From positions 1-59,755 of IMG/VR virus record IMGVR_UViG_3300042924_007750: a stretch of 59,755 bases of DNA; one strand, written 5' to 3'. The DNA comes from a virus. Lineage: Duplodnaviria; Caudoviricetes. Under the pieces are notes generated by a model, which saw nothing but the letters and a program-made list of their open reading frames with translations, was not told where the DNA came from and made no database searches. Position 1 is the stretch's first letter. Each line of letters opens with the position of its first letter. Below are positions 7,672 to 59,755 of the stretch, one piece after another. The translations under genes were made by a program, and so were the position numbers.

Positions 7672-8886
7672 ATGTCAAAAATTAAAATATTAGTAGTTCC
7701 CTCAGATAGATTTGGTGTGGGAAAATTTCGTTCTATCGAACCCCATATATTCTTACAAAACAAATTTCCTGAAGATTTTCACGTGGAAATTGATTTGGAC
7801 CCACCAATGGACAATTTGGAATTTTTTAAACAATTTCAAATTGTTGTATACCATAGAAGTATCACTAACGATTTTGAAAAGTCGTTTGAGTTAGTGGAAA
7901 AACTTAAGACTGAAGGGATAGTCACCATTTGTGACATGGATGATTATTGGGCGCCCACTAAAGACCACCCTATTCATGACATTATCATGTTTAACAAAAT
8001 CAACGAAAAGATTGTTGCGAGCATTAAACAAGCTAATTATGTGACTACAACTACACCCTTGTTTGCTGATGAAATTAGAAAATACAATAAAAATGTATTT
8101 GTATTACCAAACGCAATTAATCCTGACGAATCTCAATTCAAGGAACCTATACTACCCTCTGATAAACTTAGAGTCGGGTGGTTAGGTGGTTCATCCCACT
8201 TAGGGGATTTGCAACTTCTCAACGGCTCTTTCGCAAAGCTCCACGATTATCACAAAGATTTGCAATTTGTAATCTGTGGATTTGATACTAGAGGAACCAT
8301 CACAGAAATTAATGGTCAAACTGGAGAACATAAGAAGAGACCTATTCGACCTGAAGAAACTGTTTGGGCTAGATATGAAGAAATTTTTACTCAAAACTAT
8401 AAGTTTGTAAGTCCAGAGTATGAAAAAGCGTTAAAAAAATATGCTCAAGAGGAATATCCAGAATTTGGAAATGAGTCCTACCGTAGAGTTTGGACATTGC
8501 CCGTGACCTCGTATGCTAAGAACTATGCAAAACTTGACGTATCTTTGGCGCCTATTAAAAATCACATGTTTAACAAAATGAAATCGCAATTAAAAGTTAT
8601 TGAAGCAGGTTTTTATAAAAAAGCTTTAATTGCTAGCGATTTAGGTCCTTACACAATCGATTTGAAGCATTGTTTGAAGCAAGGAGAATTCGTTGACGGA
8701 AATGCACTTTTGGTTGATGAAAATAGGAACCATGGTGATTGGGCTAAGTTTATTGTTAAGCTTCTCAAAAACCCAAACCTTGTAACGGACATGGGTGAAC
8801 GTCTTTATGAAACAGTAAGTAAGAAATATGATTTGAATATCGTAACTTTAGACCGTGCAGAATTCTACAAAAGTTTAATCAAATAA
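7672..8886 (+). CDS. GT-B glycosyltransferase (GT4-like)
   Basis: DMDDYW, VTTTT..FA, VGWLGGSSH, DVSLAP...FN.MKS.LK.IEAG motifs. Confidence 0.85.
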   Translation: MSKIKILVVPSDRFGVGKFRSIEPHIFLQNKFPEDFHVEIDLDPPMDNLEFFKQFQIVVYHRSITNDFEKSFELVEKLKTEGIVTICDMDDYWAPTKDHPIHDIIMFNKINEKIVASIKQANYVTTTTPLFADEIRKYNKNVFVLPNAINPDESQFKEPILPSDKLRVGWLGGSSHLGDLQLLNGSFAKLHDYHKDLQFVICGFDTRGTITEINGQTGEHKKRPIRPEETVWARYEEIFTQNYKFVSPEYEKALKKYAQEEYPEFGNESYRRVWTLPVTSYAKNYAKLDVSLAPIKNHMFNKMKSQLKVIEAGFYKKALIASDLGPYTIDLKHCLKQGEFVDGNALLVDENRNHGDWAKFIVKLLKNPNLVTDMGERLYETVSKKYDLNIVTLDRAEFYKSLIK

Positions 8887-41729: not shown

Positions 41730-41915
41730 ATGCTAATTGTTTTTGTAAATAATAATATAGAAAAAGCCCTGAAACAGCTTAAGTCAAAGGTCATAAAAAC
41801 CAGACAAAATCAGCTACTTAATTCCAAAAAAGAATTTGTAAAAAAATCAGTGCAAAAACGCAACAACAAAATTAAAGCTTGTTATGTTGAGCAATTTAAG
41901 CGTCAAGAAGAATAG
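41730..41915 (+). CDS. rpsU: Ribosomal protein bS21
   Basis: MLIV...NIEKALK.LK.KV.KT...L..KKEFVKKSV.KR....KA.Y; size, basicity and motif match Bacteroidota bS21. Confidence 0.85.
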   Translation: MLIVFVNNNIEKALKQLKSKVIKTRQNQLLNSKKEFVKKSVQKRNNKIKACYVEQFKRQEE

Positions 41916-44533: not shown

Positions 44534-46294
44534 TTACCTACCGAATAACCAACCGTATTTCTCATAATCAGCCCTTGATGCTGAGTAGTTTCTTTGATTT
44601 GGCATTCCTGGTTGTGAAAACTGAGGTAATGCCGGATTGAAATATTCTGACTTTTCTTTATTTTCACTAACAACCGTGCTCCAAGAGTTAAGCATAGCTT
44701 TAGTGTGATTAACAACTTTTACTAATGATGGAAAAGCGGCTTCAGCAACATACAATGCCATTGAAATTGACATAATACAGTCATCATGGTGTCCCTTCTG
44801 GTGGTCAGGTCTTCCATTGATATAAACAAATGTTCCCATTTCATTAATCAAACGATTAGACCTAATTTTAAAATCATGACGTACAGCTTCTTCTAGGGAA
44901 GCAATAATCTGAACACGCTTGTTGTTGAAATTAATTCCCGGAATTTTTTCTTTGATTTTTGGGTCGTATTTCCATTTATTGCTCATATCAACACCATCAT
45001 AATAGAAACTTTCGTAACCTAACTCCTGAAGTTTTCTAGCCGTCGCAACACCCATTCCACCAGTCAAATCAATAACGCAAAGAGCACTATACATAATACC
45101 CCACTTGTATGCAATTTCGGCTAATGTATCGGGGGGGAGTTTTCCAACAAATTCTAATACTTGTTCTCTTGTATCAAAATCAATGATTTCAATACAAGAA
45201 AAATCTTCAGAATCACCTCTAGAAACGTCAATACCCATAACATACTTGTGTCCATTTTCTGGCTCTTTCCAAATCCAAAGTTGACCTCCAACTAGTTTTG
45301 CTTCAGGCTCTTTAACGTCGTTTTTAACTATTGTCTGCAGCATTTGCGCATCAAAAACGTTATCACCAGAACCCAAGAAATTACATTCTAATTCTTGCGC
45401 GACCTTTCTGCGGTCATACTTTAACTTTTTTACCATGCTCTCGAACCAAGAAGAACAAGGTTTATACCCGTCTTCGATGTATTTGTGTAAAGTTGTAAGT
45501 TGCCTCTCTCTTCTATCTTCACCAGATAAATCCAGAATAACATCTTTGGGATATTCTTCTTTATTCAGTAGATAATGAACGAGGTCATTAGTTTTGACCA
45601 TATACAAATCTTTTGTATAACGAGGGTCTCTATACCAATACATTTCCGTAATCTTGAAATCATTCATGTTACGCAACGCTTGGTCGTAAATTTCGTAGTA
45701 AATTGGGTCAAACCCGTTGGGAGTTGAAATCACAATCACTTTACCTCCGGTAGATAAAGATGCCATACAAGCTGCCCAGAAATCACTATCAGCTTCGATA
45801 AAGGCAGCCTCGTCAAAAATAAGAGTTGTTGGTGTGTAACCTCTAAGTGCGTCCTTTGAGGTTGCTACAGCTTTTACCTCACACCCATTTGAAAGTTTAA
45901 AGTGTCTTGCTGAGTTTTTTTCCGGTGAAAACCCGATACCAACCCATTGTGGCCATTGCTCAGTAAACCCTCTAATCTTATTCGCAAATTCAACCGAGGT
46001 ATCAAGTTTGTTTGCAATAATGAGGACTTTTTCTGGTTTTTCTTTTCTGGCAAAAGCAAGTCTTTTACTCGCCCAAGCAGCTGTAACGGTAGATACACCT
46101 GCCTGACGATATTTCAATGCAATGTTTTCATTATATTCCTCATAATCCTGAACTAACTGAACTTGGTCTTGAAATAGCTCCAAAGGAACATAACGTGAAA
46201 CAGTGTTGTCGTAAGTTTGGAGATAAGTTTTCAGAGCATAAGGTGTGCTTTTCATGCACTTCTTATACTCAATTATTACTTGTTCTTTTGTCAT
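44534..46294 (-). CDS. terL: Terminase large subunit
   Basis: KYRQAGVST (variant Walker A), IFDEAAF, ISTPNG, GIDVSRG, HDDCIM. Confidence 0.93.
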   Translation of the reverse strand: MTKEQVIIEYKKCMKSTPYALKTYLQTYDNTVSRYVPLELFQDQVQLVQDYEEYNENIALKYRQAGVSTVTAAWASKRLAFARKEKPEKVLIIANKLDTSVEFANKIRGFTEQWPQWVGIGFSPEKNSARHFKLSNGCEVKAVATSKDALRGYTPTTLIFDEAAFIEADSDFWAACMASLSTGGKVIVISTPNGFDPIYYEIYDQALRNMNDFKITEMYWYRDPRYTKDLYMVKTNDLVHYLLNKEEYPKDVILDLSGEDRRERQLTTLHKYIEDGYKPCSSWFESMVKKLKYDRRKVAQELECNFLGSGDNVFDAQMLQTIVKNDVKEPEAKLVGGQLWIWKEPENGHKYVMGIDVSRGDSEDFSCIEIIDFDTREQVLEFVGKLPPDTLAEIAYKWGIMYSALCVIDLTGGMGVATARKLQELGYESFYYDGVDMSNKWKYDPKIKEKIPGINFNNKRVQIIASLEEAVRHDFKIRSNRLINEMGTFVYINGRPDHQKGHHDDCIMSISMALYVAEAAFPSLVKVVNHTKAMLNSWSTVVSENKEKSEYFNPALPQFSQPGMPNQRNYSASRADYEKYGWLFGR

Positions 46295-46300
46295 AAATTC

Positions 46301-47590
46301 TTAGTCAGGACGGGAAATCCCCAAACCTGCTAAGAAATCTAATCCATCATCTTCAGAATCCTCTGATGAATCAAAACTTTCATATTCCTCCTTATTCTTT
46401 TTAGCAATTGAAATCAGTTCTTTGAACTTACTTGTTGCTTTTGAATTTTTCTCTGAGTCATCGGAAATTGCATTTCCAACTATTTCTAGGAATTCCTCAG
46501 CAGGGAGTTTATAGAGCTCCATTTGGAACCAGTTGATAAGCCCTTTATTTTTTTCGTCAAACATTTCGTCCGGCAAAGCAAAACGAATTTTTTCAACAAC
46601 TTGCGGCCCTATTCTAAGTGACCAGGCTTCCATAGGTAAAGTATCCGTTTGACCCATAACCTTTTCTCTAGTTTCGGGGTCTTCGGGAAGACCGTATCTA
46701 CCTTTAGCTTCTTCAATACCTTTAAGGATTTCGTGGCAAAGCATGGGGAACATTAACCCATAAGCACGAATGACAGTATCAGCAGACTCTTCGCCACCTT
46801 CACCTTCACCACCATCTTCACCATCAGCATCATCTAATTCTACCATAGCAGCAACACCTTGACCGGTATTACTCATCATATCCACCATGTCATCCATAGT
46901 AAAATACATAAAATCGTTAAGAGCCATGATTTCCAAATACATCTGATACAGACGTGGGTCAATTTCATCCAGTTTGGCTTTAACCTCGGGCTTTTGAAAT
47001 AAAAAGTGTCCTTTTTTTGCGGTTCCTTGGATAATAGCATTGATAATGTTACGCTTGTCTTTTTCTAATTCCAAAATTTCCTTAGGAGTTAGTTCGTCAA
47101 TATTGAAACCAGCTTTAATCATCAACTCTTTTGCCTCTTCCTCATTTTCTTCTTTGAGTTCTTCAGCGGCCAATCTAAAATTGCTGGTATCAATCGGCTC
47201 GCGATTCAGGTAGGATTCGATAACAAACCAATCTTTAGGAATTTGAGCTTCATCAACAGAGGCATCAATCGATAATTTTTCGAGAGCGTCTTTGTGACGA
47301 GATTCAATAGAAATAATTTGTGGGATTTTTTGGTAGACCTCAGAAATTAACATTCTAGCAACCATCGGAGAGTTAATTGCCTCTCTACCGGTCACTTGTC
47401 TTACTTTATCAACAACTTGTTTAAATCTTCGAGTCGCTAAACGCTGAATTTCTTCTGACCCTTGTTGGAAAGCAGGATTTTTAGCAAATGGATGTTCAGG
47501 GTCACGCAATTTGCGCTCCAATCCTGGGTCCATGCGTTCGGGATAATCCCCGTAATCAATCTGTTCCAGTATTTTTCTATTTTTTGCCAT
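46301..47590 (-). CDS. Hypothetical protein
   Basis: ~430-aa ORF in the head operon; contains HEILKGIEE. Confidence 0.8.
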   Translation of the reverse strand: MAKNRKILEQIDYGDYPERMDPGLERKLRDPEHPFAKNPAFQQGSEEIQRLATRRFKQVVDKVRQVTGREAINSPMVARMLISEVYQKIPQIISIESRHKDALEKLSIDASVDEAQIPKDWFVIESYLNREPIDTSNFRLAAEELKEENEEEAKELMIKAGFNIDELTPKEILELEKDKRNIINAIIQGTAKKGHFLFQKPEVKAKLDEIDPRLYQMYLEIMALNDFMYFTMDDMVDMMSNTGQGVAAMVELDDADGEDGGEGEGGEESADTVIRAYGLMFPMLCHEILKGIEEAKGRYGLPEDPETREKVMGQTDTLPMEAWSLRIGPQVVEKIRFALPDEMFDEKNKGLINWFQMELYKLPAEEFLEIVGNAISDDSEKNSKATSKFKELISIAKKNKEEYESFDSSEDSEDDGLDFLAGLGISRPD

Positions 47591-48497
47591 CACGAAGAAT
47601 TCCTTGAATTAATTTTAAAACATCATTTTTGGCTTTCTCGATTTCTTTCTTAGAAGCCTTAGGTGCAGGATTTGGACCTTCAAAAGGTTTTTTACCTGGG
47701 TGTGCTGGTCTAACGGATGGTTTAGTATCCGGTTTTGTTGTTGGTTTTACTGGTGCTGTTTCAGTTTCAGCCTCAGCCATAGATTTAAAAGATGTCAAAC
47801 TTCCTACTGGTTTGCTCATTCTAACTGATTTACCCTTCTTAGCTTTTGGTTTGTATACAGAACGGCTAATGACACCTTGTTCTGCAATAGTCTCAATAAA
47901 TTCTCCTTTGGTCATTTTTGGTTCTAAATAATTTTCGACCAAAGATACGATTCTTTCTTCAATAAAAAAATCCATCGGTGAATTTCCTTCATTTAAACTT
48001 TTCTTAACTGCTTTGACACATCTTTCAAACTTAGCATTCTTTTTTGGGCCAAGTTGGGCGTGACAAATAGCGTAAGGGTTATTTGTATCTTCTTCCCCCT
48101 CGGTCATATCCTCGTATTTGTCAATCTGAGCATCACTATCATCACCCATTCCATCTGGTGACATTATTTGGTGAGGAGCTTGCGTTGTTGCTCCACCCAG
48201 AGCCGAACCCATAACATCAACGTTATCCTCTTTCATTTCGCCCTCTTGAGCTTGCATTACAACAATGTTACCCGCACCATCAGTTTTGATTGATGCACCA
48301 TCAACAACAGCGCCAGTTACACGGGCTGTAGAAGAAGGGATTGTTGTTGTTTTAACTGTCTTGGTGGTTTGTTTTACTTGTTCAGCCAAAGAAATTTTTT
48401 TGAACAAAACATCAATCTGAGTTTCATTCAACTTAGAAACTGTTTCGGGTGATAAACCCATTTCAACTAACTGGATAATTTTATCTTTAGTTTTCAT
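47577..48497 (-). CDS. Hypothetical, possible internal head protein
   Basis: Multiple [LIM]xE sites (LAEQ, MKED, LNEG, IAEQ); small NPYAIC...KFERCV domain. Confidence 0.75.
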   Translation of the reverse strand: MKTKDKIIQLVEMGLSPETVSKLNETQIDVLFKKISLAEQVKQTTKTVKTTTIPSSTARVTGAVVDGASIKTDGAGNIVVMQAQEGEMKEDNVDVMGSALGGATTQAPHQIMSPDGMGDDSDAQIDKYEDMTEGEEDTNNPYAICHAQLGPKKNAKFERCVKAVKKSLNEGNSPMDFFIEERIVSLVENYLEPKMTKGEFIETIAEQGVISRSVYKPKAKKGKSVRMSKPVGSLTSFKSMAEAETETAPVKPTTKPDTKPSVRPAHPGKKPFEGPNPAPKASKKEIEKAKNDVLKLIQGILRDGKK

Positions 48498-48882
48498 AAA
48501 CGACATTTTTTTCAAATTCGAGAATTAAATCTTTCTCGTATAATTTATCTTTGACTGAATCTTCTTCTTGTCCAAAACGGAAAACCAATCTATTGTTCTC
48601 GTCATATTCACCAACTTCCCAACCTAAAGCGACAACTCCGTCCATGGCATCGGACATACTGAAGAAGTCGGAATTTTGTGCTAATTCGAGTTTTATATTT
48701 GATTTTCTCAACACACCAACTTTTTGAATGTGTTCTAGGTCTGGGGGTGATGGGTAACCATTTGCGGGTGCAGCTTCCCAAGAGTCACCCCAGACTTCTA
48801 GATTTTCTGAAAAAATGAATTCATAGAGATTGTCTCCCTTATAATCAGGACCTAGTCCGTTGATATAAGTTAGATACCTCAT
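48487..48882 (-). CDS. Hypothetical protein
   Basis: ORF coupled on both sides. Confidence 0.8.
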   Translation of the reverse strand: MRYLTYINGLGPDYKGDNLYEFIFSENLEVWGDSWEAAPANGYPSPPDLEHIQKVGVLRKSNIKLELAQNSDFFSMSDAMDGVVALGWEVGEYDENNRLVFRFGQEEDSVKDKLYEKDLILEFEKNVVYEN

Positions 48883-50069
48883 AAAACAATACCTTCAATA
48901 GAAATTTTTACTTGTTTATTGTTATTTTCAAAAACCAAATTTTTCTTGTTTGTTCTTCCAACGAACTCGAAACCTTTATTTTCTTCTAAAAACTTCTTGC
49001 TTGCTAATTCTTGTTCGATTGTTTCTGACAAATTTTCAATTTTGTTTAGCATCGAACTAAATTTTGTCTTGGTAGAACCTTGTCTTTCTTCAAACAATTT
49101 CTTTGCATGCTCAACCTCTGAAGAACTTACTTCGAAATACTTGCTCAACACTTTGTCAATTTTGCTTTCTTTCATTGACATGCCGAAATTGTAATCTTCA
49201 GAACCCATGCCTTCCATAGGTTCTTCTGGAGAAATTTCAGCATCCATTTCAAAATCCATTTCAGCACCTGGTTCTTCCATTCCCATGTCCATATCCATTT
49301 CAGAGTCAGCTTCAACGTCTTCGAACTTAGCCATGATGTCTTCCATGTCTTCTGGTTCGAGTTTAGTCAAATCAACCGCAGATAAAACCATGTTGATTAC
49401 ATATTTGATATCCTCAGAAGTCATTCCATCCTGAGATTCAAGTGCTCTCATTTTTTGAGTGAGCTTGCCTGTCAATTTTTGGATAAGTCTGAAAGAAACT
49501 TTCTCTTCCATATCTTGCTCCATACCAGCAGGCTCTTCCATAGAAGTGTCTACGTCCATATCAACATCCATTCCTAAGTCCATACCCATGTCACCACCAG
49601 CGTCATCAGTAGCATCAACAGAAGGTAATTCTGGTTCTGGAAGTGGAGCTGGTTCAGCTGGAACAGGTGGAATCTCAGCAACTGGTGCTGGTGGGGTTGG
49701 AGTTTTTAAAACAAATTTCTTTTGTTCACCAAATAATTTAACCTCTTCATCTTGTCCATTCATCTCATTGTTTTCCTTGATAATCAAGTTGAGTTTTCTT
49801 AGAGCTTGGGCATAAGATGAGTGATATTTTCTATTTTTCATAGGCTCCATGTAATCCAAAGAAGATTCGTTGATACCTTTCTTGATGATGTATCCTTGCT
49901 TCTCTTTTACAATGTGGTAATCCATTCCATCAGCTAAGTTGATGGAATATTCGGATGCACCTTCATTGACGCTTGTTGAAGTCGTCTTGTAGGTGGCAAT
50001 CTCCATAATTCTTTTTAATTTGTCGACACCTTCAAGTTTTTCGCTGCCGATTGGTTTTAATTTTGCCAT
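48879..50069 (-). CDS. Acidic putative prohead core protein
   Basis: D/E/M-rich low-complexity segments like the scaffold; many [LIV]xE sites. Confidence 0.7.
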   Translation of the reverse strand: MAKLKPIGSEKLEGVDKLKRIMEIATYKTTSTSVNEGASEYSINLADGMDYHIVKEKQGYIIKKGINESSLDYMEPMKNRKYHSSYAQALRKLNLIIKENNEMNGQDEEVKLFGEQKKFVLKTPTPPAPVAEIPPVPAEPAPLPEPELPSVDATDDAGGDMGMDLGMDVDMDVDTSMEEPAGMEQDMEEKVSFRLIQKLTGKLTQKMRALESQDGMTSEDIKYVINMVLSAVDLTKLEPEDMEDIMAKFEDVEADSEMDMDMGMEEPGAEMDFEMDAEISPEEPMEGMGSEDYNFGMSMKESKIDKVLSKYFEVSSSEVEHAKKLFEERQGSTKTKFSSMLNKIENLSETIEQELASKKFLEENKGFEFVGRTNKKNLVFENNNKQVKISIEGIVL

Positions 50070-50089
50070 GGTTTTTTATTATTTAAATT

Positions 50090-50968
50090 TTAATTATTAA
50101 GGCCGTGCATACCCCCTAGTTCAACAGCACTCAAGTCAACTACAGTACCTTGTCTATTACCATCTGGGCCGATAGGTACCCAATCAACTGGGTGAGGATA
50201 TTCTGCGGTGTAGGTTACACCACTACAAGTTATGCAAGCTTCGGCTTCATACTGAACATTAACATCGAACACTCCAAATGGAGTTGCTGACGGAGTAGGG
50301 GTCATTGTTTGCGTTTGAGTCTGCGTAGGGGTAGCAGTATTTGTTGTGGTTTGTGTTGGCGTTGCAGTTTTTGTTGGTGTTTGTGTGGGGGTTGCTGTAT
50401 TAGTTGTTGTTTGTGTTGGTGTTTGTGTTTGAGTATTAGTTGGAGTCAAAGTTGGTGATGCTGTAATACTAGGGGTTGGAGTGTTAGATGCGGTAATACT
50501 CGGGGTTGGAGTGTTTGTTGGTGTTTGAGTTTGAGTATTGGTTGGTGTTGCAGTGTTAGTTGTTGTTGGTGTTTGAGTTTGAGTTGCTGTCTGACTTGGT
50601 GTCTGTGTATTAGTATTTGTTGGGGTTTGCGTTTGAGTTGGTGTTGGTGTTTGTGTCGCAGTCCTTGTAGGTGTTTGAGTATTCGTTGGTGTATTGGATG
50701 GGGTTTGAGTAGGGGTAGAAGTCGGAGATTCTGTTGGGGTTGGTGTTAAGTCTCCAAGACATTCAACGCAGTTAATCCAAGGACCATTAAATACCGTTAC
50801 AACTGTGGCTAAAGGGGTTTCATCAATTGGTGCAAGAGTCCAACAACCTATGTTTGTAGACCCTACTAATAATTCATAAATTCTACCCGAAACAATTGCA
50901 GCTTCGGTAGCAAAAAATCTTGACGGTTGCCCAATACAAGAAGTTCCAACAAAATAATTCAACGCCAT
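50090..50968 (-). CDS. Thr/Pro-rich (mucin-like) putative virion protein
   Basis: Cys-rich N-domain (GCWTL...GPWINCVEC), ~150-aa TPTQT linker, CxxC C-domain; TATTTAT at 50983-50989. Confidence 0.8.
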
Positions 50969-52139: not shown

Positions 52140-52565
52140 CTATTTTAATTTTTTTATTTCATCCCTAATTTCAATAGCTTTTTCAAAATCTTGTTTATTG
52201 ATTGCTTCCTTAAGGTCATTTTCCAAACCGTTAATTTTTTCCTTATTTGCTTCAAGGTTTTTAATGCGGTCACGCAATTCCACAGCCATTTCAAATTCTT
52301 GTTCCTCAATAGCCTTTTGCAAAAGATTTTGAAGTTTGTTAATATCGGAATTGTTTTCCGATGGTTGTGGATTACCCGAGCTTCTATAAATGGTTGTAAA
52401 TTGTATCATACCATCTTCTGATGTGAAAGTTTCCTTGGACCAATTACCGAGGTCGTCTTTACCTGTTTCAGTTTTAGTTGACCGTATTACAAACGGGTCG
52501 AATTGATTTCTTAAGAAAGAGTTTAGAATGGAATCTAAATCTTCGAAAATTCTTTTTTTTGCCAT
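52140..52565 (-). CDS. Tandem UvrB/UvrC (UVR) motif protein, McsA-like putative Clp adaptor
   Basis: Two copies: LQKAIEEQEFEMAVELRDRIK and LKEAINKQDFEKAIEIRDEIK. Confidence 0.85.
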   Translation of the reverse strand: MAKKRIFEDLDSILNSFLRNQFDPFVIRSTKTETGKDDLGNWSKETFTSEDGMIQFTTIYRSSGNPQPSENNSDINKLQNLLQKAIEEQEFEMAVELRDRIKNLEANKEKINGLENDLKEAINKQDFEKAIEIRDEIKKLK

Positions 52566-52684: not shown

Positions 52685-52762
52685 ATTAATAAATATTTTT
52701 TACAGTGCGTTTGGAAATGTGCGTTTTTTGTTTAACCTTTGTACAAATCAAATTATGAAACC

Positions 52763-54766
52763 ATGAGCGAAACTATGGACGACGACGACGATAAGGCCCT
52801 CGGTAGGAAGAAACCCTCTTCCGATTCTAGAACTCCTGTTCTGGATAATTTTTCCCGTGACCTTAATAAACTTGCTGAGCAAGGAAAGCTCGACCCAGTA
52901 ATTGGTCGAGAAAAAGAAATCGTGCGCATTGCACAGATTCTCTCTCGTAGAAAAAAGAACAACCCTATCATCCTAGGTGAACCGGGTTGTGGTAAAACCG
53001 CAATTGTGGAGGGTCTTGCGAGCTTGATTGTAAATGGAAGCTGTCCCAAGAACCTTCTTGATAAGCGCATCGTCACCCTTGACCTTACAGCAGTTGTTGC
53101 TGGTACAAAATACCGTGGTCAGTTTGAGGAGCGTCTTAAGGTTATCTTGGAGGAACTTTCCCAAAACCCCAACATCGTCATCTTCATTGATGAAATCCAT
53201 ACCTTAATTGGTTCGGGTAACTCTTCCGGTAGCCTAGATGGTTCCAACATCTTTAAACCTGCTTTGGCTAGAGGGGAAATCCAGTGCATCGGCGCTACCA
53301 CGTTGGATGAATACCGCAAATCATTTGAAAAGGACGGAGCTTTGGAGCGTCGCTTCCAAAAGGTAATGGTGGACCCATCCACCGTTGCTGAAACCATTCA
53401 AATTCTCACCAACATCCGAGACCGCTACGAGGCATTTCACAAGGTATCGTACTCTGATGAAGTCATCGAGCTGTGTGTAAAGCTCGCTGACCGTTACATC
53501 ACCGACCGAGAATTCCCTGACAAAGCATTTGATATCCTTGATGAAGTGGGAGCTCGCAGTCAGACCGAGCAGAAGATTCCAGAGATAATTGAGGAGCTTA
53601 AACATAAAGCTGCTGATATTAAGCTTCAGAAGATGGAAGTTGTAAAAAAGCAGAACTACGAAGAAGCTGCGGCACTTCGTGATAAAGAACGGAATATTCT
53701 TGTAAAACTTCAAAATGAGAAGAAGAAGTTCGAACAAGAGTCCGCAACCCATCGTGTTCCAATTACCGTGGAGCAGGTATACGATGTCGTATCTAATATG
53801 ACCAAAATCCCGGTGAGCAAAATGTCAATTGATGACACCAACGCTCTTATCAATATGGACAAGGTTCTTATGAGCAAGGTCATTGGTCAAGATGAAGCGG
53901 TCTCCAAGATTGTTAAATCAATCCGTAGAAACCGCATCGGAATTAAAGACCCCAACCGTCCGATTGGTTCGTTTATATTCCTTGGTTCAACGGGAGTTGG
54001 TAAGACTCACCTGGCAAAGCAAATTGCAAAGGAAATGTTTGGTTCGGAAAGCGCTCTTATCCGCGTTGACATGAGCGAATACCAGGAGAAGCACACAATT
54101 TCCCGATTGGTTGGAGCGCCTCCGGGATATGTGGGTTACGAAGAAGGTGGACAGCTGACCGAACAAGTCAAAAACAAACCTTATGCTGTAATCCTATTCG
54201 ATGAAGTTGAAAAGGCACACAAGGACATCTTTTCGATTTTGCTCCAAATTCTAGATGATGGTCACGCAACCGATTCATTGGGACGCAAAATCAACTTCAA
54301 GAACACCTTGATTATCATGACCACAAACCTTGGGGTTAAGAAACTACAGGATTTTGGTTCCGGAATCGGTTTTTCTTCCAACAAGTATTCAAACGAGGAG
54401 GCAAAAAAACAAATTTTGATGAAGGAAATGAAGAACTTCTTCTCACCTGAATTCATCAACCGTATCGACGATACAATTGTTTTTGAAACTTTATCACAAG
54501 AAAATATCCAACAAATCGTTGGTTTGGAATTAGAAAAGCTTTCCAAGCGTTTGGGTGAAATGAAATATAAGATTGTGATGGATAAAACTGTAACCGAATA
54601 CATCGCAAAAGTTGGATTCGACCAGGTTTATGGTGCACGTCCAATCAAGCGTGCCATCCAGGATAAAATCGAGGACTTCCTGTCCGAACTTATCCTAATT
54701 GGCAAACTCAAAGAAAACCGCAAATATACCATCAAGGTGGTGGACGAGCAGGTGAAAATCTCTTAA
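52763..54766 (+). CDS. clpC: ClpC-like AAA+ unfoldase lacking the Clp N-domain
   Basis: GKLDPVIGR, GEPGCGKT, FIDEIH, UVR-type M-domain (QNYEEAAALRD), GSTGVGKT, FDEVEKAH, GIGF ClpP-docking loop, YGARP. Confidence 0.92.
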   Translation: MSETMDDDDDKALGRKKPSSDSRTPVLDNFSRDLNKLAEQGKLDPVIGREKEIVRIAQILSRRKKNNPIILGEPGCGKTAIVEGLASLIVNGSCPKNLLDKRIVTLDLTAVVAGTKYRGQFEERLKVILEELSQNPNIVIFIDEIHTLIGSGNSSGSLDGSNIFKPALARGEIQCIGATTLDEYRKSFEKDGALERRFQKVMVDPSTVAETIQILTNIRDRYEAFHKVSYSDEVIELCVKLADRYITDREFPDKAFDILDEVGARSQTEQKIPEIIEELKHKAADIKLQKMEVVKKQNYEEAAALRDKERNILVKLQNEKKKFEQESATHRVPITVEQVYDVVSNMTKIPVSKMSIDDTNALINMDKVLMSKVIGQDEAVSKIVKSIRRNRIGIKDPNRPIGSFIFLGSTGVGKTHLAKQIAKEMFGSESALIRVDMSEYQEKHTISRLVGAPPGYVGYEEGGQLTEQVKNKPYAVILFDEVEKAHKDIFSILLQILDDGHATDSLGRKINFKNTLIIMTTNLGVKKLQDFGSGIGFSSNKYSNEEAKKQILMKEMKNFFSPEFINRIDDTIVFETLSQENIQQIVGLELEKLSKRLGEMKYKIVMDKTVTEYIAKVGFDQVYGARPIKRAIQDKIEDFLSELILIGKLKENRKYTIKVVDEQVKIS

Positions 54767-54830: not shown

Positions 54831-55427
54831 GTGAAAAAATACATAAAATTAACTGAAAGTGACCTTACAAGAATTATTAAAAGAGTTATTTCAGAACAAG
54901 AAAATGATGATGCGTGTGTTCAAGAAGAACTTGATACCCTGAATGATTTTTTGGGTGGAATCGTCACATTAGAGCCCCAAGACATCGGTGGAGAATTAAG
55001 TCATGAGGACTTGTTATCTTCGGTCACTGACCCCAAACAAAAAAATATTTTGTCCAGGGTCCTTAGCAACATCTCACAAATGAACATGAACCAGTTAAAG
55101 GAGGAACTCAAAAAAGTCATGTCAATGAAAAATCTCAAAGAACAACAAACTCCGTATATGGATAGAACAACTGAAATCGGTGGAGTTCAAGTACCCACAG
55201 TTCTGGTCCACGGGTCATTAGGTTTATTGGCAATTGCAATTCTAACCAAAATGATTAAAGGTCTAGTAAATATTCAATCAAATTCTGGTTCAAGAAGAAA
55301 AAGAAGCAGTCGTATCTTTTCAAAAGCAGTAGGGTGCCAAGGAGGAGCGGCACGCGCAAGACTCGTTAGAATGAGACGAAGAAGAGAAAACTGGAGAAGT
55401 TTCCTTAAAAAAATTGGACTAAGATAA
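54831..55427 (+). CDS. Leader-family protein with hydrophobic helix and Arg-rich tail
   Basis: (M)KKYIKLTESDLTRIIKRVISEQ leader; TATTTAT at 54810-54816. Confidence 0.8.
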   Translation: MKKYIKLTESDLTRIIKRVISEQENDDACVQEELDTLNDFLGGIVTLEPQDIGGELSHEDLLSSVTDPKQKNILSRVLSNISQMNMNQLKEELKKVMSMKNLKEQQTPYMDRTTEIGGVQVPTVLVHGSLGLLAIAILTKMIKGLVNIQSNSGSRRKRSSRIFSKAVGCQGGAARARLVRMRRRRENWRSFLKKIGLR

Positions 55428-55447: not shown

Positions 55448-55789
55448 ATGAAAAAAGTAATCAGATTTACAGAATCAGATTTGACAAAAATTATTCAAAA
55501 AGTTATTGAAGAACAGGAGCAACCTATTTCATTACCATCAAAGGGACTCAAACCTGTTTTTGATTCGTCAAAAATCGCACAAATAAAATCACAGGCAGAT
55601 GTTTTAGCAAAAGACACCGAACTTATCAAACAAGTACTAGAAACATTGAAAAAGTGGGACCCAGAAGCTTATTATATGCTTACACGTGGTGATGACCCCA
55701 TAAAAAAAACAGTACTAGGTGACCTTATCACCTATGGAAGTATAATTGGTATGATTTACGGAATTGTACAAGAACTAAGAGGAAGATAA
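55448..55789 (+). CDS. Leader-family protein with C-terminal hydrophobic helix
   Basis: MKKVIRFTESDLTKIIQKVIEEQ leader. Confidence 0.8.
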   Translation: MKKVIRFTESDLTKIIQKVIEEQEQPISLPSKGLKPVFDSSKIAQIKSQADVLAKDTELIKQVLETLKKWDPEAYYMLTRGDDPIKKTVLGDLITYGSIIGMIYGIVQELRGR

Positions 55790-55790
55790 A

Positions 55791-56270
55791 ATGAAAAAAG
55801 TTATTAGATTATCAGAAAATGATTTGGTTAGATTGATTGAAAGAGTTATCAATGAACAACCAACACAAACTAAAAGTCCTGAAGAGTGTATAAGGTTACG
55901 CAAAAAGATAGATATTGCAAAATCTCGCGCACAAAGCGTTATTGCAATGGCACCTAGACAACTCCAGGATATCCTGAAGAAAGCATTTGAAACCGGAGTA
56001 AACCAGGGTCCTGAGGCATTTAAGAATGCATTACCAAGAGAAGCAAGAGAAACCCTGGACAAAAAGATTAGAACAACCAGAATGCCAAAGACCAACTCTG
56101 AAATTGAATCTATGATATCCCAAGCTCAACAGGAAGTGGAAAACATTCAAGAACAAGTGAAATCTTGGCTAGGTTTATTTATAAACATCGGAATAATATT
56201 GATGGTACTTTGGGTTTTATTAATCATTATCGGAAATACAGGTGGTGATATAGCCGGTTACTGCGGTTAA
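55791..56270 (+). CDS. Leader-family protein with C-terminal transmembrane helix
   Basis: MKKVIRLSENDLVRLIERVINEQ leader; WLGLFINIGIILMVLWVLLIII. Confidence 0.8.
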   Translation: MKKVIRLSENDLVRLIERVINEQPTQTKSPEECIRLRKKIDIAKSRAQSVIAMAPRQLQDILKKAFETGVNQGPEAFKNALPREARETLDKKIRTTRMPKTNSEIESMISQAQQEVENIQEQVKSWLGLFINIGIILMVLWVLLIIIGNTGGDIAGYCG

Positions 56271-56339: not shown

Positions 56340-57065
56340 ATGAAAAATCTTATTTTAAAAATATTACACGAAGAAGTAAAAAACGGTAATGTTATCTGCG
56401 ATAACTGTGGTTGGTCTTGGAGTTTAAAAGAGGGGGGTCACGACCCTTATATCTGCCATCAATGCAATCATAATAATGAGCCGAAGAAAACCAAAACTAT
56501 CAAAGAAGATACAGAAGGGTCTTCTAATTCTACTGAATCCAATCCTCCAGATTTCAAACAAAAGTTATACGATTTTTTGAAGAAAAAATGGGACGAAAAT
56601 GGATTTAATCTTAAAGATGTAGTTAAACTTAAAAGAATTTTAGGTAAGTTCAACGAACATATCTATATTACAAAATACTTTGGTGGTATTGAAAATATAA
56701 TGAACAAATACGTAAAAAAACTACAGAGTTGTTTGAATTGTAGTTTTGGTAATTTATCTTTTGAGTTTGTTATAGACTATTATGAACTAAATTCTAATTA
56801 TAATTATACAGGTGCTATTAACTTATACGTTGACGTTTCTGAAGATGTGTTTGGTACGTTTTATAGTTATAATGACAAAACAATTTCCGCCAGGAAAGTT
56901 ATGAAAGACGATGATTATTCGGAATATTCAGATGACCTTGAAAGAGCGATAATCGACTCAATTGAAATCAAAATGAATCAATCACTAAATCCATATGGAG
57001 TAAGTGTTGAAGTTGTTGACCTAGTATTTGTTCCATTCAGACTTTTATCAAAAAACAAGATTTGA
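56340..57065 (+). CDS. Hypothetical protein with short leader and Zn-ribbon
   Basis: MKNLILKILHEE leader; CDNC...CHQC; TATTTAT at 56327-56333. Confidence 0.75.
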   Translation: MKNLILKILHEEVKNGNVICDNCGWSWSLKEGGHDPYICHQCNHNNEPKKTKTIKEDTEGSSNSTESNPPDFKQKLYDFLKKKWDENGFNLKDVVKLKRILGKFNEHIYITKYFGGIENIMNKYVKKLQSCLNCSFGNLSFEFVIDYYELNSNYNYTGAINLYVDVSEDVFGTFYSYNDKTISARKVMKDDDYSEYSDDLERAIIDSIEIKMNQSLNPYGVSVEVVDLVFVPFRLLSKNKI

Positions 57066-57878
57066 GGAAAAACGTGTTCCACGCTTTTTGTAGTGCAGTT
57101 TATAACCCAACTCAGCAATCATTTTTTTCCCAATTTCAATTCCGTTGAAGACATCTTCAAGAACAACATATTCGTTACGAGTGTGGTAATTATAATATCC
57201 GATGGATATGTTAATACAAGAAAAGTCAAACTTTCCGCGCAAAGAATAAACATCAGTATAAGGGTGAACAAGATATTCCAAGCTTTCCCCAACATTTTCA
57301 ACGAGAATTTTATCACAAGTTTCAAAAAACTCGGATTCCCTGTCAAAAAGTTGTTGACCAAAACAATATTCTGTCACCATCCAATTTTCTGGACCATCGA
57401 ATTGGATACCGTACCCAACGTTTTGAAAAAACTCAACATCAGCTTTAGCGGAACCAAGGCATCCGGTTTCTTCCGCAACAAAAAATGCTGCTTTTACATT
57501 TGGAAGTTCTTCCAATACTTGCAAACATGCAAAAACGCCAGCCTTATCATCACCACCAATGCCAGTTGGGTTTCCGTGATTATCATAAGCTTTAAATGAT
57601 GGTTTAAGTTCACCCTGGGCATTTTCATGCATTTCCTCACGGACATTAATTTCGTTTAATCCATGAACGGTATCAGTATGAGCAATAACACAAGGAAAAT
57701 ATTCCACATCTGCATCAGTTTGCTTTGTGGCATAGACATTTAGCATGTCATCAATATAATATTCAATATTGTTTTCTTTGAGCCAATCGCAAATAAATTC
57801 GACAAGCAAACCCTCTCTATGAGTTGCTGTGGGAACCGATAGTACCTCTTTTAGGAGTTGAATTTTTTCGTGAAGCAT
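57048..57878 (-). CDS. M20/M28-family Zn peptidase
   Basis: AHTDTVH, GGDDKAGV, EETGCLGS, YTD, GYYNYHT; start reassigned to ATG 57878. Confidence 0.85.
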   Translation of the reverse strand: MLHEKIQLLKEVLSVPTATHREGLLVEFICDWLKENNIEYYIDDMLNVYATKQTDADVEYFPCVIAHTDTVHGLNEINVREEMHENAQGELKPSFKAYDNHGNPTGIGGDDKAGVFACLQVLEELPNVKAAFFVAEETGCLGSAKADVEFFQNVGYGIQFDGPENWMVTEYCFGQQLFDRESEFFETCDKILVENVGESLEYLVHPYTDVYSLRGKFDFSCINISIGYYNYHTRNEYVVLEDVFNGIEIGKKMIAELGYKLHYKKRGTRFSSNLVF

Positions 57879-59304
57879 CTTCAAGTATTTGTTGCAAAGA
57901 TAATAAAATATTTTTACTTTCAAAATTAAATCTTGGGTTGTTATACCAATTCAAAAAATCTTCTCGCGACATTTTGACTATCTTTCCCCAATTAGGCCCA
58001 TTTGTCACCCTAAATTCAACAATATCGTCATCTATATCATAACTTAAAACAGAGAAATTTTCTTTAGTGTGGGGGTTTTCAGGGTAACCCCAGGAACTTT
58101 TTAAAGATGCCAAAAAATTTAAAAATGATTTTCTATCAGAAAAGTTAGAACTTTGCAATTTTTCCAAAATGTAATTTAAATCATCCTCGGTTTCGACGCC
58201 CAAAGAATCATAATCCATAAATTCATCATCGAAAAAATTATATTTATCTTCTTCCCAGCCTGACAAATCCCATTGATTATTTTTTAGCAAATACTTTGAC
58301 AAAACTTCTTTCATTGAGGCGTGAGTTAAATTTTGCATTTGCATAAATAGGTATAGTGGAACCATTGGAATTTCGAGGGTTCTATCAAGAGGTCTGAACC
58401 TTATTCCGGTATTTTTTTGAAACTTTGCCAATTCTTCTAAAATTCGTCTCCGCATATTTTTAAAACTAGCTTCATCTTCGTGCCTTGCAAAATAATTTAA
58501 AATATTTTCCATAGAATTCCTAAAAGAACCAAAAAGAATCTGGTTGGCACTTTTTACCTCATCATCACTAACGACCGGTTTACCCCCATTAATAATTTTA
58601 TAAATTGTATTAGCAACCTCCAACAAACGGGGATTTCCCTGGAAAATATATCCTAAAGTAAAGCTTCCATCCATAAAATTGTCGTACACACCACTAAGGT
58701 CTTCAGCGTTAATAAAACACTCAAGGTTAGGGTTTAGCGCACAGTCCATCATACCCAAATCCCAATCATACAATTTTAAAATTTCGATTAAGAATTCCTC
58801 GTCAGTTTCAAAATTCAAAACTAACGTAGATTTGTTTCGCGGCTCCTTTTCATTAACATAATCCACAAATTCAGTTCTGTCAAAAATTTCATCAGAAGCA
58901 CCACCCAACAAAAATCTTTTTAAGTTATAATTTAAAAAATCAGGTCTTTTAGTAAAAAAATCAAAAACTTCTTCTTTTTTATCATTATCCACCGGATAAT
59001 AAAATAACGCCTCATTTGAATGAAGGAAATCTGCAGGATTTAAAAAAGACCCATCTTTGTCCGAAACAACATTCCCAGCGTCAGTAACTTCATCAGAATA
59101 CCTCAAAAGTAAAAATTTACTGTCATCCTCATTTTTTATAATATAAACCTCATCGGTGTTTTGTATCGGAACAATAAACTCATTATAAAATTCTGGTTCA
59201 CACCATTTTGTACCCTCAGCATCTGAACAAAAACTTTCACGGTTCATGTATTTTGTAACCTCACCACCAGAAGTTTTTAAAATTTTTCTTTTTGGATTTG
59301 CCAT
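57817..59304 (-). CDS. Hypothetical protein
   Basis: 495-aa ORF; TATTTAT at 59311-59317, 6 nt before the ATG. Confidence 0.8.
   Translation of the reverse strand: MANPKRKILKTSGGEVTKYMNRESFCSDAEGTKWCEPEFYNEFIVPIQNTDEVYIIKNEDDSKFLLLRYSDEVTDAGNVVSDKDGSFLNPADFLHSNEALFYYPVDNDKKEEVFDFFTKRPDFLNYNLKRFLLGGASDEIFDRTEFVDYVNEKEPRNKSTLVLNFETDEEFLIEILKLYDWDLGMMDCALNPNLECFINAEDLSGVYDNFMDGSFTLGYIFQGNPRLLEVANTIYKIINGGKPVVSDDEVKSANQILFGSFRNSMENILNYFARHEDEASFKNMRRRILEELAKFQKNTGIRFRPLDRTLEIPMVPLYLFMQMQNLTHASMKEVLSKYLLKNNQWDLSGWEEDKYNFFDDEFMDYDSLGVETEDDLNYILEKLQSSNFSDRKSFLNFLASLKSSWGYPENPHTKENFSVLSYDIDDDIVEFRVTNGPNWGKIVKMSREDFLNWYNNPRFNFESKNILLSLQQILEDASRKNSTPKRGTIGSHSNS
57895..57924 (-). promoter_or_regulatory. 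Bacteroidota sigma70-type promoter embedded in the upstream gene
   Basis: Minus strand TTTG-N18-TATCTTTG, 16 nt before ATG 57878. Confidence 0.6.
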
Positions 59305-59327
59305 AATAATATAAATACTTATATTTG
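59297..59327 (+). promoter_or_regulatory. Consensus Bacteroidota sigma70 promoter for the ncRNA/tmRNA unit
   Basis: TTTG (59297-59300), N19, TATATTTG (59320-59327). Confidence 0.75.
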
Positions 59328-59333
59328 TACTAT

Positions 59334-59416
59334 GAAATCACAGGTGGCTCCCTTAATAGTTAAGGCTGACCTTAAGCATCTGACGTTATGTCTATACAGG
59401 GGGCGAAAGTGATTTC
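59334..59416 (+). ncRNA. Unassigned structured RNA candidate
   Basis: Nested stems GAAATCAC/GTGATTTC, GCTCCCT/AGGGGGC and ATAG/CTAT enclose two hairpins whose loops begin CTGA; starts at the predicted TSS. Confidence 0.6.
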
Positions 59417-59436
59417 TTATTGTTCTTTGAAAAAAT

Positions 59437-59755
59437 GGGGGTGACCGGTATTGATTGGCAGAGTTATTCATACGGGGCATGCAGTGAGAAGTTTCCTATC
59501 ACTTTAATCTATGGGGGCGAATTTCAAACGGCGAAACTTTCGCAAAACTCGAGGCAGTGGGTCTTCTCGCTGCTGAGGAAGTTACTGTAGCCTAAGGCAA
59601 CAGCAACAATGGGTCGATGGACATATAACCTAGAAACAGAAGTCCGTACGGTGTGGTTTCTACCTTAAAAGGAATGGAGGTCATGTTTGGTGTTCTACCG
59701 ATTTGAGTGAACATCCCACAGTTGCTGGTAACGATGGAAAAATTGGAACCAAATA
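59437..59755 (+). ncRNA. ssrA: tmRNA, 3' end beyond the window; tag ORF 59530-59595 = GETFAKLEAVGLLAAEEVTVA*
   Basis: 5' GGGGGTGACCGGTATTGA, GCATGC, pk1 (AGTGA/TCACT, TTTCC/GGGGG), resume context AAAC-GGC, stop codon TAA in the loop of hairpin GTTACTGTAGCC/GGCAACAGCAAC. Confidence 0.88.

Follow-up and report, generated by a model that had tools for sequence, protein, structure and literature searches.

The peptide tags that transfer-messenger RNA (tmRNA) appends are among the best understood degradation signals, and the tmRNAs of phages have usually been listed and then passed over. Passages of earlier surveys record such genes in Bacillus phage G and mycobacteriophages of cluster C (PMC4131195), alongside SmpB in huge phages (PMC7162821), and in 402 of 18,146 phage genomes, those of Melnitz-like phages being two-piece and linked to a glutamine riboswitch (PMC9004378). 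In the current study, we analyze the last 319 nucleotides (nt) of the viral record IMGVR_UViG_3300042924_007750, which we call the window when the whole stretch of 59,755 bases is meant. An initial annotation of this DNA had recognized a phage tmRNA with a 21-codon tag ending in EEVTVA. The locus raises three questions: whether the tmRNA gene is genuine, whether its long tag is a selected signal, and which protease, if any, would read it.

A tmRNA gene cut by the end of the record

The gene begins with GGGGGTGACCGG at position 59,437 and runs off the record at 59,755; the point of truncation is the end of the record itself, and the 3′ tRNA-like half is missing. The parts that remain are the acceptor 5′ strand (GGGGGUG alone), P2, PK1, the tag frame, helix 5, and the PK2 region. 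When a 37-nt piece of the gene was used as a query, a second viral contig (L002) was retrieved that is 92.5% identical to the window over all 319 nt and that is a full-length match to the Rfam family RF00023 (88.9 bits, E 3e-34, model positions 1–374). The homologous locus (L037) of the closest relative, genome G004, is 92.0% identical over 338 nt and scores 84.6 bits against the same model. Because these full-length relatives, at 92% identity, are RF00023 matches, the stretch is best regarded as a real tmRNA gene interrupted by the contig end, with a frame that reads as annotated. In L002, the T-arm and the ACCA end align to the Rfam model, and a G3-U70 pair can be read by eye. Among 20 representatives of the relatives collected by the EEVTVA ending, 17 are full-model RF00023 matches (69–133 bits), and the remaining three carry a group I intron within the 3′ part of the tmRNA gene. 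Contigs from RNA libraries (four runs from three studies) also cover positions 59,445–59,755.

Several observations weigh against this identification. On the window, ARAGORN and Rfam at its gathering threshold report no tmRNA, and Rfam at E ≤ 10 on positions 59,200–59,755 reports no RF00023 match; only the 5′ part of the gene is readable here, the 3′ half lying beyond the window; ARAGORN also finds no tmRNA gene in L002, L037, L015, and L056, the closest relatives among them; and the RNA-library contigs show neither strand, ends, nor level, DNA being possible in such libraries. The silence of the detectors on the window is explained by the absence of the 3′ tRNA-like half. Confirmation by ARAGORN and Rfam, which had been proposed as a check, was thus obtained in part: the window itself gave no match, Rfam recognized the full-length relatives, and ARAGORN missed L002 and L037 while calling a tmRNA in 11 of the 20 representatives. 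The four RNA-library runs do not cover the neighboring gene (58,700–59,311), a result that was not counted as evidence; many of the contigs come from relatives in which the flank differs.

The incompleteness of the gene in the window and the silent detectors could also be taken as marks of a dead fragment, whether a piece of host tmRNA acquired by the phage or a pseudogene in decay. However, the truncation coincides with the record end, 92%-identical full-length relatives score 85–89 bits, the tag frame is kept in at least 155 loci, and RNA-library contigs lie on the gene, so that the chance of a dead fragment is negligible. A genuine tmRNA carrying a 21-residue tag is, in our judgment, almost certain.

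The introns mentioned above match RF00028 (68–87 bits) at L029 842–1059, L036 825–1041, and L040 842–1068, and in several further family members the match breaks off at that point, at about 390 of 411. Bacteria, too, are known to have tmRNA genes split by introns.

Tag frame, resume codon, and stop-codon hairpin

The tag frame, GETFAKLEAVGLLAAEEVTVA, reads as given in the initial annotation (exact position in Table 1), and the residues appended number 22 when the alanine carried by the tmRNA is counted. The frame opens with a G-initial resume codon, GGC, preceded at −4 by an A that is the equivalent of E. coli A86, described in passages of Miller et al. (2008, PMC2481249) as the main frame determinant, which sets the frame four nucleotides downstream. 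Both features are invariant in the family: the A is present in all 83 distinct sequences, as is a G opening the resume codon. In the Rfam alignment of L002, the consensus resume codon coincides with GGC and the A86 equivalent with the A at −4. At the peptide level, the first residue is G in 55 and D in two of 57 distinct sequences not selected on the tag, and tag residues 2–4 are conserved as amino acids; upstream of them, amino acids are not conserved from −1 to −4, with a stop at −4 in 6/57. Peptide conservation starting at GGC, together with the A at −4 and the Rfam alignment, bears out the annotated resume codon.

A different start would shorten the tag. Were translation to resume at the internal GCA (codon 5), a 17-residue tag, AKLEAVGLLAAEEVTVA, would result. 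Alanine is the commonest resume codon in bacteria, and ARAGORN puts the resume codon at that Ala in four of the 11 relatives in which it calls a tmRNA (at G in five and elsewhere in two), which speaks against the GGC start. Codon 5, however, encodes N, D, K, S, E, or T in 39 of the 57 family members, and in the window a U stands four bases before it, whereas the A at −4 from GGC, the G or D at residue 1, the Rfam alignment, and the conservation of residues 2–4 all favor GGC. The internal start is accordingly considered extremely unlikely.

The stop codon had been assigned to the loop of the canonical helix. A hairpin (helix 5) can be drawn with the stop codon as its loop, and in seven distinct subclade sequences 89% of its cells are paired, compared with 20–57% when the partner strand is slid, a count made on a helix named by the author rather than on an RNAalifold consensus. 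Folded from the window alone, the hairpin reaches −9.9 kcal/mol (z −1.42), a stability matched by 19 of 200 shuffled sequences. No two-sided covariation is present in the window's subclade, in which the non-coding strand alone varies. RNAalifold gave no consensus helix at the stop for 38 diverse sequences, the alignment being poor downstream of the stop, and chose a different weak pairing for 14 subclade sequences. Because two-sided covariation is lacking, a stop codon in a hairpin loop is consistent with the data rather than proven.

A family of long tags under selection

Relatives of the tag were collected in two ways. In a tag-selected sample, the back-translated last six codons plus stop (EEVTVA-stop) were scanned over viral contigs, which yielded 70 viral loci, 65 of them tmRNA homologues (with RNA identity down to about 70% among them) and five the ends of protein genes. 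In a sample not selected on the tag, the conserved block downstream of the tag served as the query and gave more than 119 matches; among the 80 loci examined, 69 have the same frame type, two are cut, four carry an unrelated tag, three show a diverged form, and two are frameless. With all scans joined, the frame is found in at least 155 loci on about 138 distinct viral contigs (by name comparison), encoding 68 distinct peptides. Tag length is nearly constant across these 155 loci, with 21 residues in 145, 20 in five, and 22 in five, and so is the end: the last residue is A in 149, I in five, and V in one, and the last two are VA in 128 and AA in six.

The peptides follow the pattern G-[N/E/D]-[V/T]-φ-x-[K/N]-[L/M]-x-x-φ-G-[L/I]-φ-x-x-x-x-V-x-V-A, in which an amphipathic conserved core (φ4, L/M7, φ10, G11, L12, φ13) is followed by residues of polar or acidic character and then by the hydrophobic end V-x-V-A. 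The peptide itself appears to be under selection because synonymous codon changes keep the same residues: in the unselected sample of 57 distinct sequences, four different codons encode an invariant G11 and three an invariant A21, V18 is present in 50/57 with three codons used, and L12 uses both Leu codon families. Ratios of nonsynonymous to synonymous polymorphism (pN/pS) point the same way, at 0.43 in frame versus 0.89 and 2.40 in the shifted frames of the EEVTVA set and 0.69 versus 0.81 and 1.13 in the unselected sample; the modest contrast in the latter counts against selection and is attributed to synonymous sites near saturation. On these sequence grounds, the tag peptide is very probably a selected functional signal.

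The family appears so far almost only in phages. The pattern G-L-x-x-x-EEVTVA-stop, which covers the EEVTVA ending and not the wider family, has a single match in 185,579 species-representative cellular genomes. The confinement of the cellular scan to this ending limits the case for a phage-only distribution. The sole match is a 668-bp contig of a metagenome-assembled genome (MAG) with a 5′-cut tmRNA of this family; the same MAG has its own canonical tmRNA elsewhere (152 bits), and the stray contig is most simply explained as phage DNA assigned to the wrong bin. Among 50,697 GenBank phage records, there were no full matches to this RNA family, the best being a 49-nt match to the tRNA-like end. 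A text search of the literature did not find the strings EEVTVA, GLIRTEEV, or ATSNVAVA, and among the phage-tmRNA papers listed no title or abstract start concerns such tags, although supplementary tables may list tags.

The unrelated tag type of the four loci noted above ends in ...YAVAA or ...LAVAA. The loci L093, L096, L124, and L138 carry a second phage tag type that has the downstream RNA block in common with the main family; its frame is open far upstream, its visible end is ...MTFEDLMAFVGADYAVAA, and a ClpC gene is absent from the contigs. In the published uncultured 484-kb phage LR756508.1, a tmRNA of another family is present (L237 1501–1944, 72 bits), in which a frame of about 36 codons can be read by eye from a GGC with an A at −4 to the end ...PAAV, a candidate long tag; ARAGORN calls a different, 8-residue tag there. 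In LR745206.1, a published huge phage of 634 kb with a ClpC of 57% identity, no tmRNA scored above the cut-off.

The internal LAA and the C-terminal end

The initial annotation had emphasized that the tag buries an LAA. Residues 13–15 of the window tag are indeed L-A-A, but this is not a meaningful feature of the family: positions 14–15 are AA, SA, QA, RT, TT, AT, ST, or RE, among others, in relatives, the exact tag of the window with its LAA at that position recurs in two other contigs only, and just one of the 69 tags in the sample not selected on the tag holds LAA anywhere. The buried LAA thus appears to be an accident of the window's subclade, and its exposure by trimming, which had been suggested as one possible route to degradation, is unlikely because the motif is not conserved.

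At the C-terminus, the canonical ...ALAA degron is likewise missing, as the tag ends in T-V-A and the internal LAA is neither terminal nor conserved. What is present is a small, hydrophobic end, ...VTVA, with a last residue of A, I, or V in 155/155 loci and a penultimate V in 47/57 sequences. According to passages of two sources, ClpXP of E. coli has a strong preference for terminal Ala-Ala (PMC10862746), and LVA variants of the E. coli tag serve as degrons (PMC9382460).

A comparison with the tags of Bacteroidota is instructive. These had been described as short, in agreement with the native Bacteroides tag GETNYALAA (in the part of bioRxiv 10.1101/2025.03.18.644028 on which we rely). The phage gene resembles the Bacteroidota tmRNA in its one-piece architecture (full-model RF00023 matches in relatives), a Gly resume codon after the frame-setting A, a tag that begins G-E-T, a stop that probably lies in a hairpin, and a presumed dependence on SmpB, which was not detected in the phage. 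It differs in the length of the tag (21 versus 9 residues), the internal core, the V-A rather than A-A end, and its location on a phage.

Candidate readers encoded by the phage

As annotated, the window encodes a ClpC-type ATPase and a UVR-motif protein, together with bS21 (Table 1). The best solved relatives of the ATPase are S. aureus ClpC, B. subtilis ClpC, and M. tuberculosis ClpC1 (about 740 bits in one continuous alignment). Two AAA+ modules and a short M-domain are present, and a UVR motif within the protein scores 20.4 bits, just below the cut-off. The N-domain is absent, as seen from an alignment that starts at ClpC residue ~153, from a length of 675 versus ~810–818 residues, and from the lack of a Pfam Clp_N match. 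Its S-G-I-G-F-S stretch (a G-I-G-F loop) aligns with F-A-G-F-G-G of S. aureus ClpC, which we take to be the ClpP-docking loop in D2.

ClpC is a frequent companion of the tmRNA. In the EEVTVA set, an orthologue is found in 30/30 tmRNA-bearing records at 2–6 kb from the tmRNA, and in the broader set in 23 of the 33 records searched; contigs with the unrelated tag type have none (0/4, one contig being 77% complete). ClpP is present in 9/40 records, including six of the ten that are at least 45% complete, and the phage ClpP assumed by the initial annotation was found in the closest relative, G004. The Pfam scan of the window detected neither ClpP nor SmpB, and SmpB was detected in 0/40 related records. 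The gene order in G004 is UVR, ClpC, four small open reading frames (ORFs), M20, ORF, tmRNA, 26 tRNA genes over 17 kb, and ClpP; by comparison, the window appears to break off just before the tRNA island.

The small UVR protein had been paired with ClpC. It is not a constant companion, as it was matched in 11/24 records with about eight clear orthologues, and no clear orthologue was found in the tested records of the largest EEVTVA clade. Its match to the McsA C-terminal profile is weak (40.6 bits versus a cut-off of 210). As a general adaptor for the tag, it was set aside on the strength of its 11 matches in 24 records.

Proposed fate of the tagged chains

The following course of events is proposed. 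Transcription would probably start from the conserved box at 59,320 and pass through an optional structured leader. The RNA would then be charged with alanine by the host enzyme, via the G3-U70 tRNA-like domain of the full-length relatives, and would enter stalled ribosomes with host SmpB, because the phage lineage seems to encode none. Translation would resume at GGC, four bases after the invariant A, add Ala and the 21 residues of GETFAKLEAVGLLAAEEVTVA to the chain, and terminate at the UAA in the hairpin loop. The product would carry a two-part degradation tag, with a hydrophobic C-terminal end for the pore of an unfoldase and an upstream core that would give it a reader other than the host's default ...LAA recognition. 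The best candidate for this reader would be the phage's own ClpC, which lacks the N-domain, in partnership with ClpP of phage or host origin; the M20 peptidase would complete the breakdown.

The steps of this proposal differ in strength. That the tag is a degron is probable from its sequence, and whether a functional tmRNA with a selected degradation tag is read by something other than the host default is, to us, an evenly balanced matter. The phage ClpC as the main reader is a tentative suggestion, for which the constant company of ClpC, the non-Ala-Ala end, and the precedent of Mollicutes can be cited. In Mollicutes, long tags ending in NYAFA are read by Lon instead of ClpXP (passages of PMC9382460); the lengthened tag, the changed end, and the change of protease make this the best precedent for a re-aimed tag. 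It differs in that Mollicutes are a cellular lineage that lost ClpXP and whose reader was shown by experiment, whereas the phage tag is unrelated in sequence and its candidate reader is ClpC. The E. coli ssrA tag offers a parallel for a bipartite signal, being composed of an SspB-binding N-terminal part and a ClpX-binding LAA end (also in passages of PMC9382460). Both it and the phage tag combine a conserved upstream segment with a conserved hydrophobic C-terminal end; their sequences differ, and on the phage side no SspB-like adaptor has been identified, the UVR protein being inconstant.

A number of findings weigh against ClpC as the reader. The phage ClpC is without the N-domain, the usual site for adaptors and substrates; 10/33 records have no ClpC match, though they are mostly fragments; in the ...NVAVA subclade, ClpC lies 14–27 kb from the tmRNA; ClpP is missing from the two most complete records (82% and 76%); and the V-A end may still be readable by host ClpXP. 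Moreover, all carriers belong to one T4-like lineage, and the co-occurrence with ClpC is therefore inseparable from common descent, while the adjacency of the two genes may simply follow from the tmRNA heading the tRNA island. Routing to a phage Clp machine is thus plausible but confounded by shared ancestry.

Alternatively, host proteases (ClpXP, Lon, FtsH, or tail-specific protease) may read the tag as a degradation signal of the usual kind, in which case the phage ClpC would have other clients, and the extra length and the core would be a peculiarity of the lineage or a binding site for a host adaptor. The small hydrophobic end is that of all known tags, with A as the last residue in 149/155 loci, and tags are described as ending hydrophobic with one exception (in the part of Hudson 2014 on which we rely). 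The tag also starts G-E-T like that of Bacteroides, ClpP is far from universal (9/40 records), ClpC is distant from the tmRNA in one subclade, and in G004, where the tmRNA heads the tRNA island, its nearness to ClpC may be incidental. Against host reading stand the penultimate V in 47/57 sequences, set beside the Ala-Ala preference of E. coli ClpXP; the core, which persists in RNAs of as little as about 70% identity and has no counterpart in the short tag of host type; and the occurrence of the EEVTVA type in just one stray contig among 185,579 cellular genomes. On balance, reading by host proteases is somewhat unlikely.

Tagged chains might also escape degradation, the ribosomes being freed and the chains spared or otherwise marked (for a chaperone, the membrane, or aggregation), or the host tmRNA being competed with. 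The lack of a terminal Ala-Ala and the amphipathic pattern of the core would suit such a role, and tag function is dispensable for some phage-related roles of tmRNA (passages of PMC2481249). Nevertheless, the strongly conserved hydrophobic V-x-V-A end resembles a degron engaged by a pore, and the lineage invests in ClpC, ClpP, and a peptidase, which makes a tag without degradation very unlikely. Returning to a degradation tag with a reader of its own, its most far-reaching form would be a private tag-and-recycle pathway, in which a phage-only 21-residue degron is read through its core and V-x-V-A end by the N-domain-less ClpC and degraded by phage or host ClpP and M20 to amino acids, insulated from host ...LAA/ClpXP, with the leader RNA governing expression of the tmRNA and of tRNA operons; taken whole, this pathway is a speculative and unlikely scheme.

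A structured leader upstream of the tmRNA

Between a promoter-like TATATTTG box, presumably akin to the Bacteroidota −7 consensus, and the tmRNA lies a structured leader RNA (Table 1). Its 26-nt core is exact in 31 viral contigs (loci L204–L234). In 30 of them the leader precedes a tmRNA or tRNA gene of the same orientation, and the remaining one is truncated at a contig end; in 22/31 the next gene, at most about 100 nt away, is a long-tag tmRNA, and in 8/31 tRNA genes (Glu-Arg, Met, or Pro) come next. The leader is almost invariant even between differing tmRNAs, its consensus fold has 22 bp with one covarying pair, and a separate RNA-library contig covers 59,346–59,409. It matches no Rfam family, riboswitches included, and is not present at the same spot in the close relative L002. 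Judged by these contexts, it appears to be an optional leader or a small RNA tied to phage tRNA-type genes.

Such an arrangement recalls Melnitz, in which a structured RNA element is attached to the tmRNA gene. More generally, the known phage tmRNAs (those of mycobacteriophages, phage G, huge phages, and Melnitz) also reside in large genomes rich in tRNAs and translation genes; in the text compared (PMC4131195, PMC7162821, PMC9004378), no tag peptides of the present kind are described.

Source phage and neighboring features

The source virus is a T4-like freshwater (lake) jumbo phage of about 300 kb, of which the window is estimated to represent 19%. T4-like structural genes were identified with Pfam (Gp23 capsid, Gp20 portal, terminase, and prohead protease), and the cultured capsids nearest to that of the window are those of a Microcystis phage (43%), Flavobacterium phages (41%), and Rhodothermus phage RM378 (36%). 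bS21 is present in 5/5 large relatives, and its neighbors in the protein atlas are viral throughout. The host probably belongs to the Bacteroidota. The promoter motif TANNTTTG is not enriched window-wide (90 matches versus 85 ± 8.5 expected), and the promoter box thus provides no host evidence. The features discussed are collected in Table 1.

Table 1. Features located in the window, with strand and supporting evidence.
Feature	Position	Strand	Description	Evidence
bS21 ribosomal protein	41730..41915	+	phage ribosomal protein	Pfam Ribosomal_S21, 34.7 bits
UVR-motif protein	52140..52565	-	small protein with two UVR motifs, divergent from ClpC, subclade-specific	Pfam UVR, 66 bits
ClpC-type unfoldase	52739..54766	+	double AAA+, without N-domain, 675 aa	Pfam AAA, AAA_lid_9, AAA_2, ClpB_D2-small
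M20-family metallopeptidase	57048..57923	-	between ClpC and tmRNA	Pfam Peptidase_M20, 27.3 bits; same position in G004
TATATTTG box	59320..59327	+	promoter-like	conserved ~7-10 nt before leader in relatives
Leader RNA	59335..59415	+	structured, ~80 nt, near-invariant	between TATATTTG box and tmRNA
tmRNA gene	59437..59755	+	5′ 319 nt of ~411	homology to full-length Rfam relatives
A at −4 from resume codon	59526	+	equivalent of E. coli A86	A in 83/83 distinct family sequences
Tag reading frame	59530..59595	+	21 codons GETFAKLEAVGLLAAEEVTVA (59530-59592; resume codon GGC at 59530) and stop TAA (59593-59595)	sequence; codon conservation; Rfam alignment
Helix 5 hairpin	59581..59607	+	12 bp, stop codon as 3-nt loop; 5′ strand formed by codons 18-21	fold, pairing counts

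Some further observations concern the surroundings of the tmRNA. In the gap between ClpC and the peptidase, three adjacent small ORFs (54,831–55,427, 55,448–55,789, and 55,791–56,270) have a near-identical N-terminus of about 22 residues (MKK.I.LTESDL..II..VI.EQ) and hydrophobic C-terminal segments; a similar set occurs in G004, and none of the three has a Pfam or NCBIfam match. In the tRNA island of G004, one of the tRNAs called by ARAGORN has an anticodon of four bases (taat) and no amino acid assigned (L202 11621–11697), which could be a mis-call or a tRNA of the frameshift or suppressor type. The ClpC orthologue of genome G054 matches in three pieces over 5.5 kb (45,288–50,772), a layout suggestive of inserted elements (inteins, introns, or homing genes, for instance), and the ClpC matches of G013, G025, G046, G051, and G056 contain one or two in-frame stop codons. 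Farther away, at 7,672–28,564, a block of about 20 kb devoted to sugar-nucleotides and glycosyltransferases is embedded in the T4-like phage, with GDP-mannose dehydratase, DegT-type aminotransferases, several GT2, GT4, GT10, and GT11 genes, and methyltransferases.

Implications

What is new here is a large, almost phage-only family that keeps a tag more than twice the length of the host's, with a selected peptide and a conserved internal core. Because selection acts on the peptide and its core, the family argues that phages go beyond topping up ribosome rescue and choose the fate of the rescued chains. Surveys based on ARAGORN undercount these genes and misreport their tags, many being missed or mis-started, and the leader RNA that precedes tmRNA and tRNA genes may represent a new RNA motif. 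If the phage unfoldase reads the tag, this would be the second natural case of a tag redirected to a different protease, the first being that of Mollicutes and Lon, and it would provide an orthogonal pair of degron and unfoldase for Bacteroidota and for synthetic biology.

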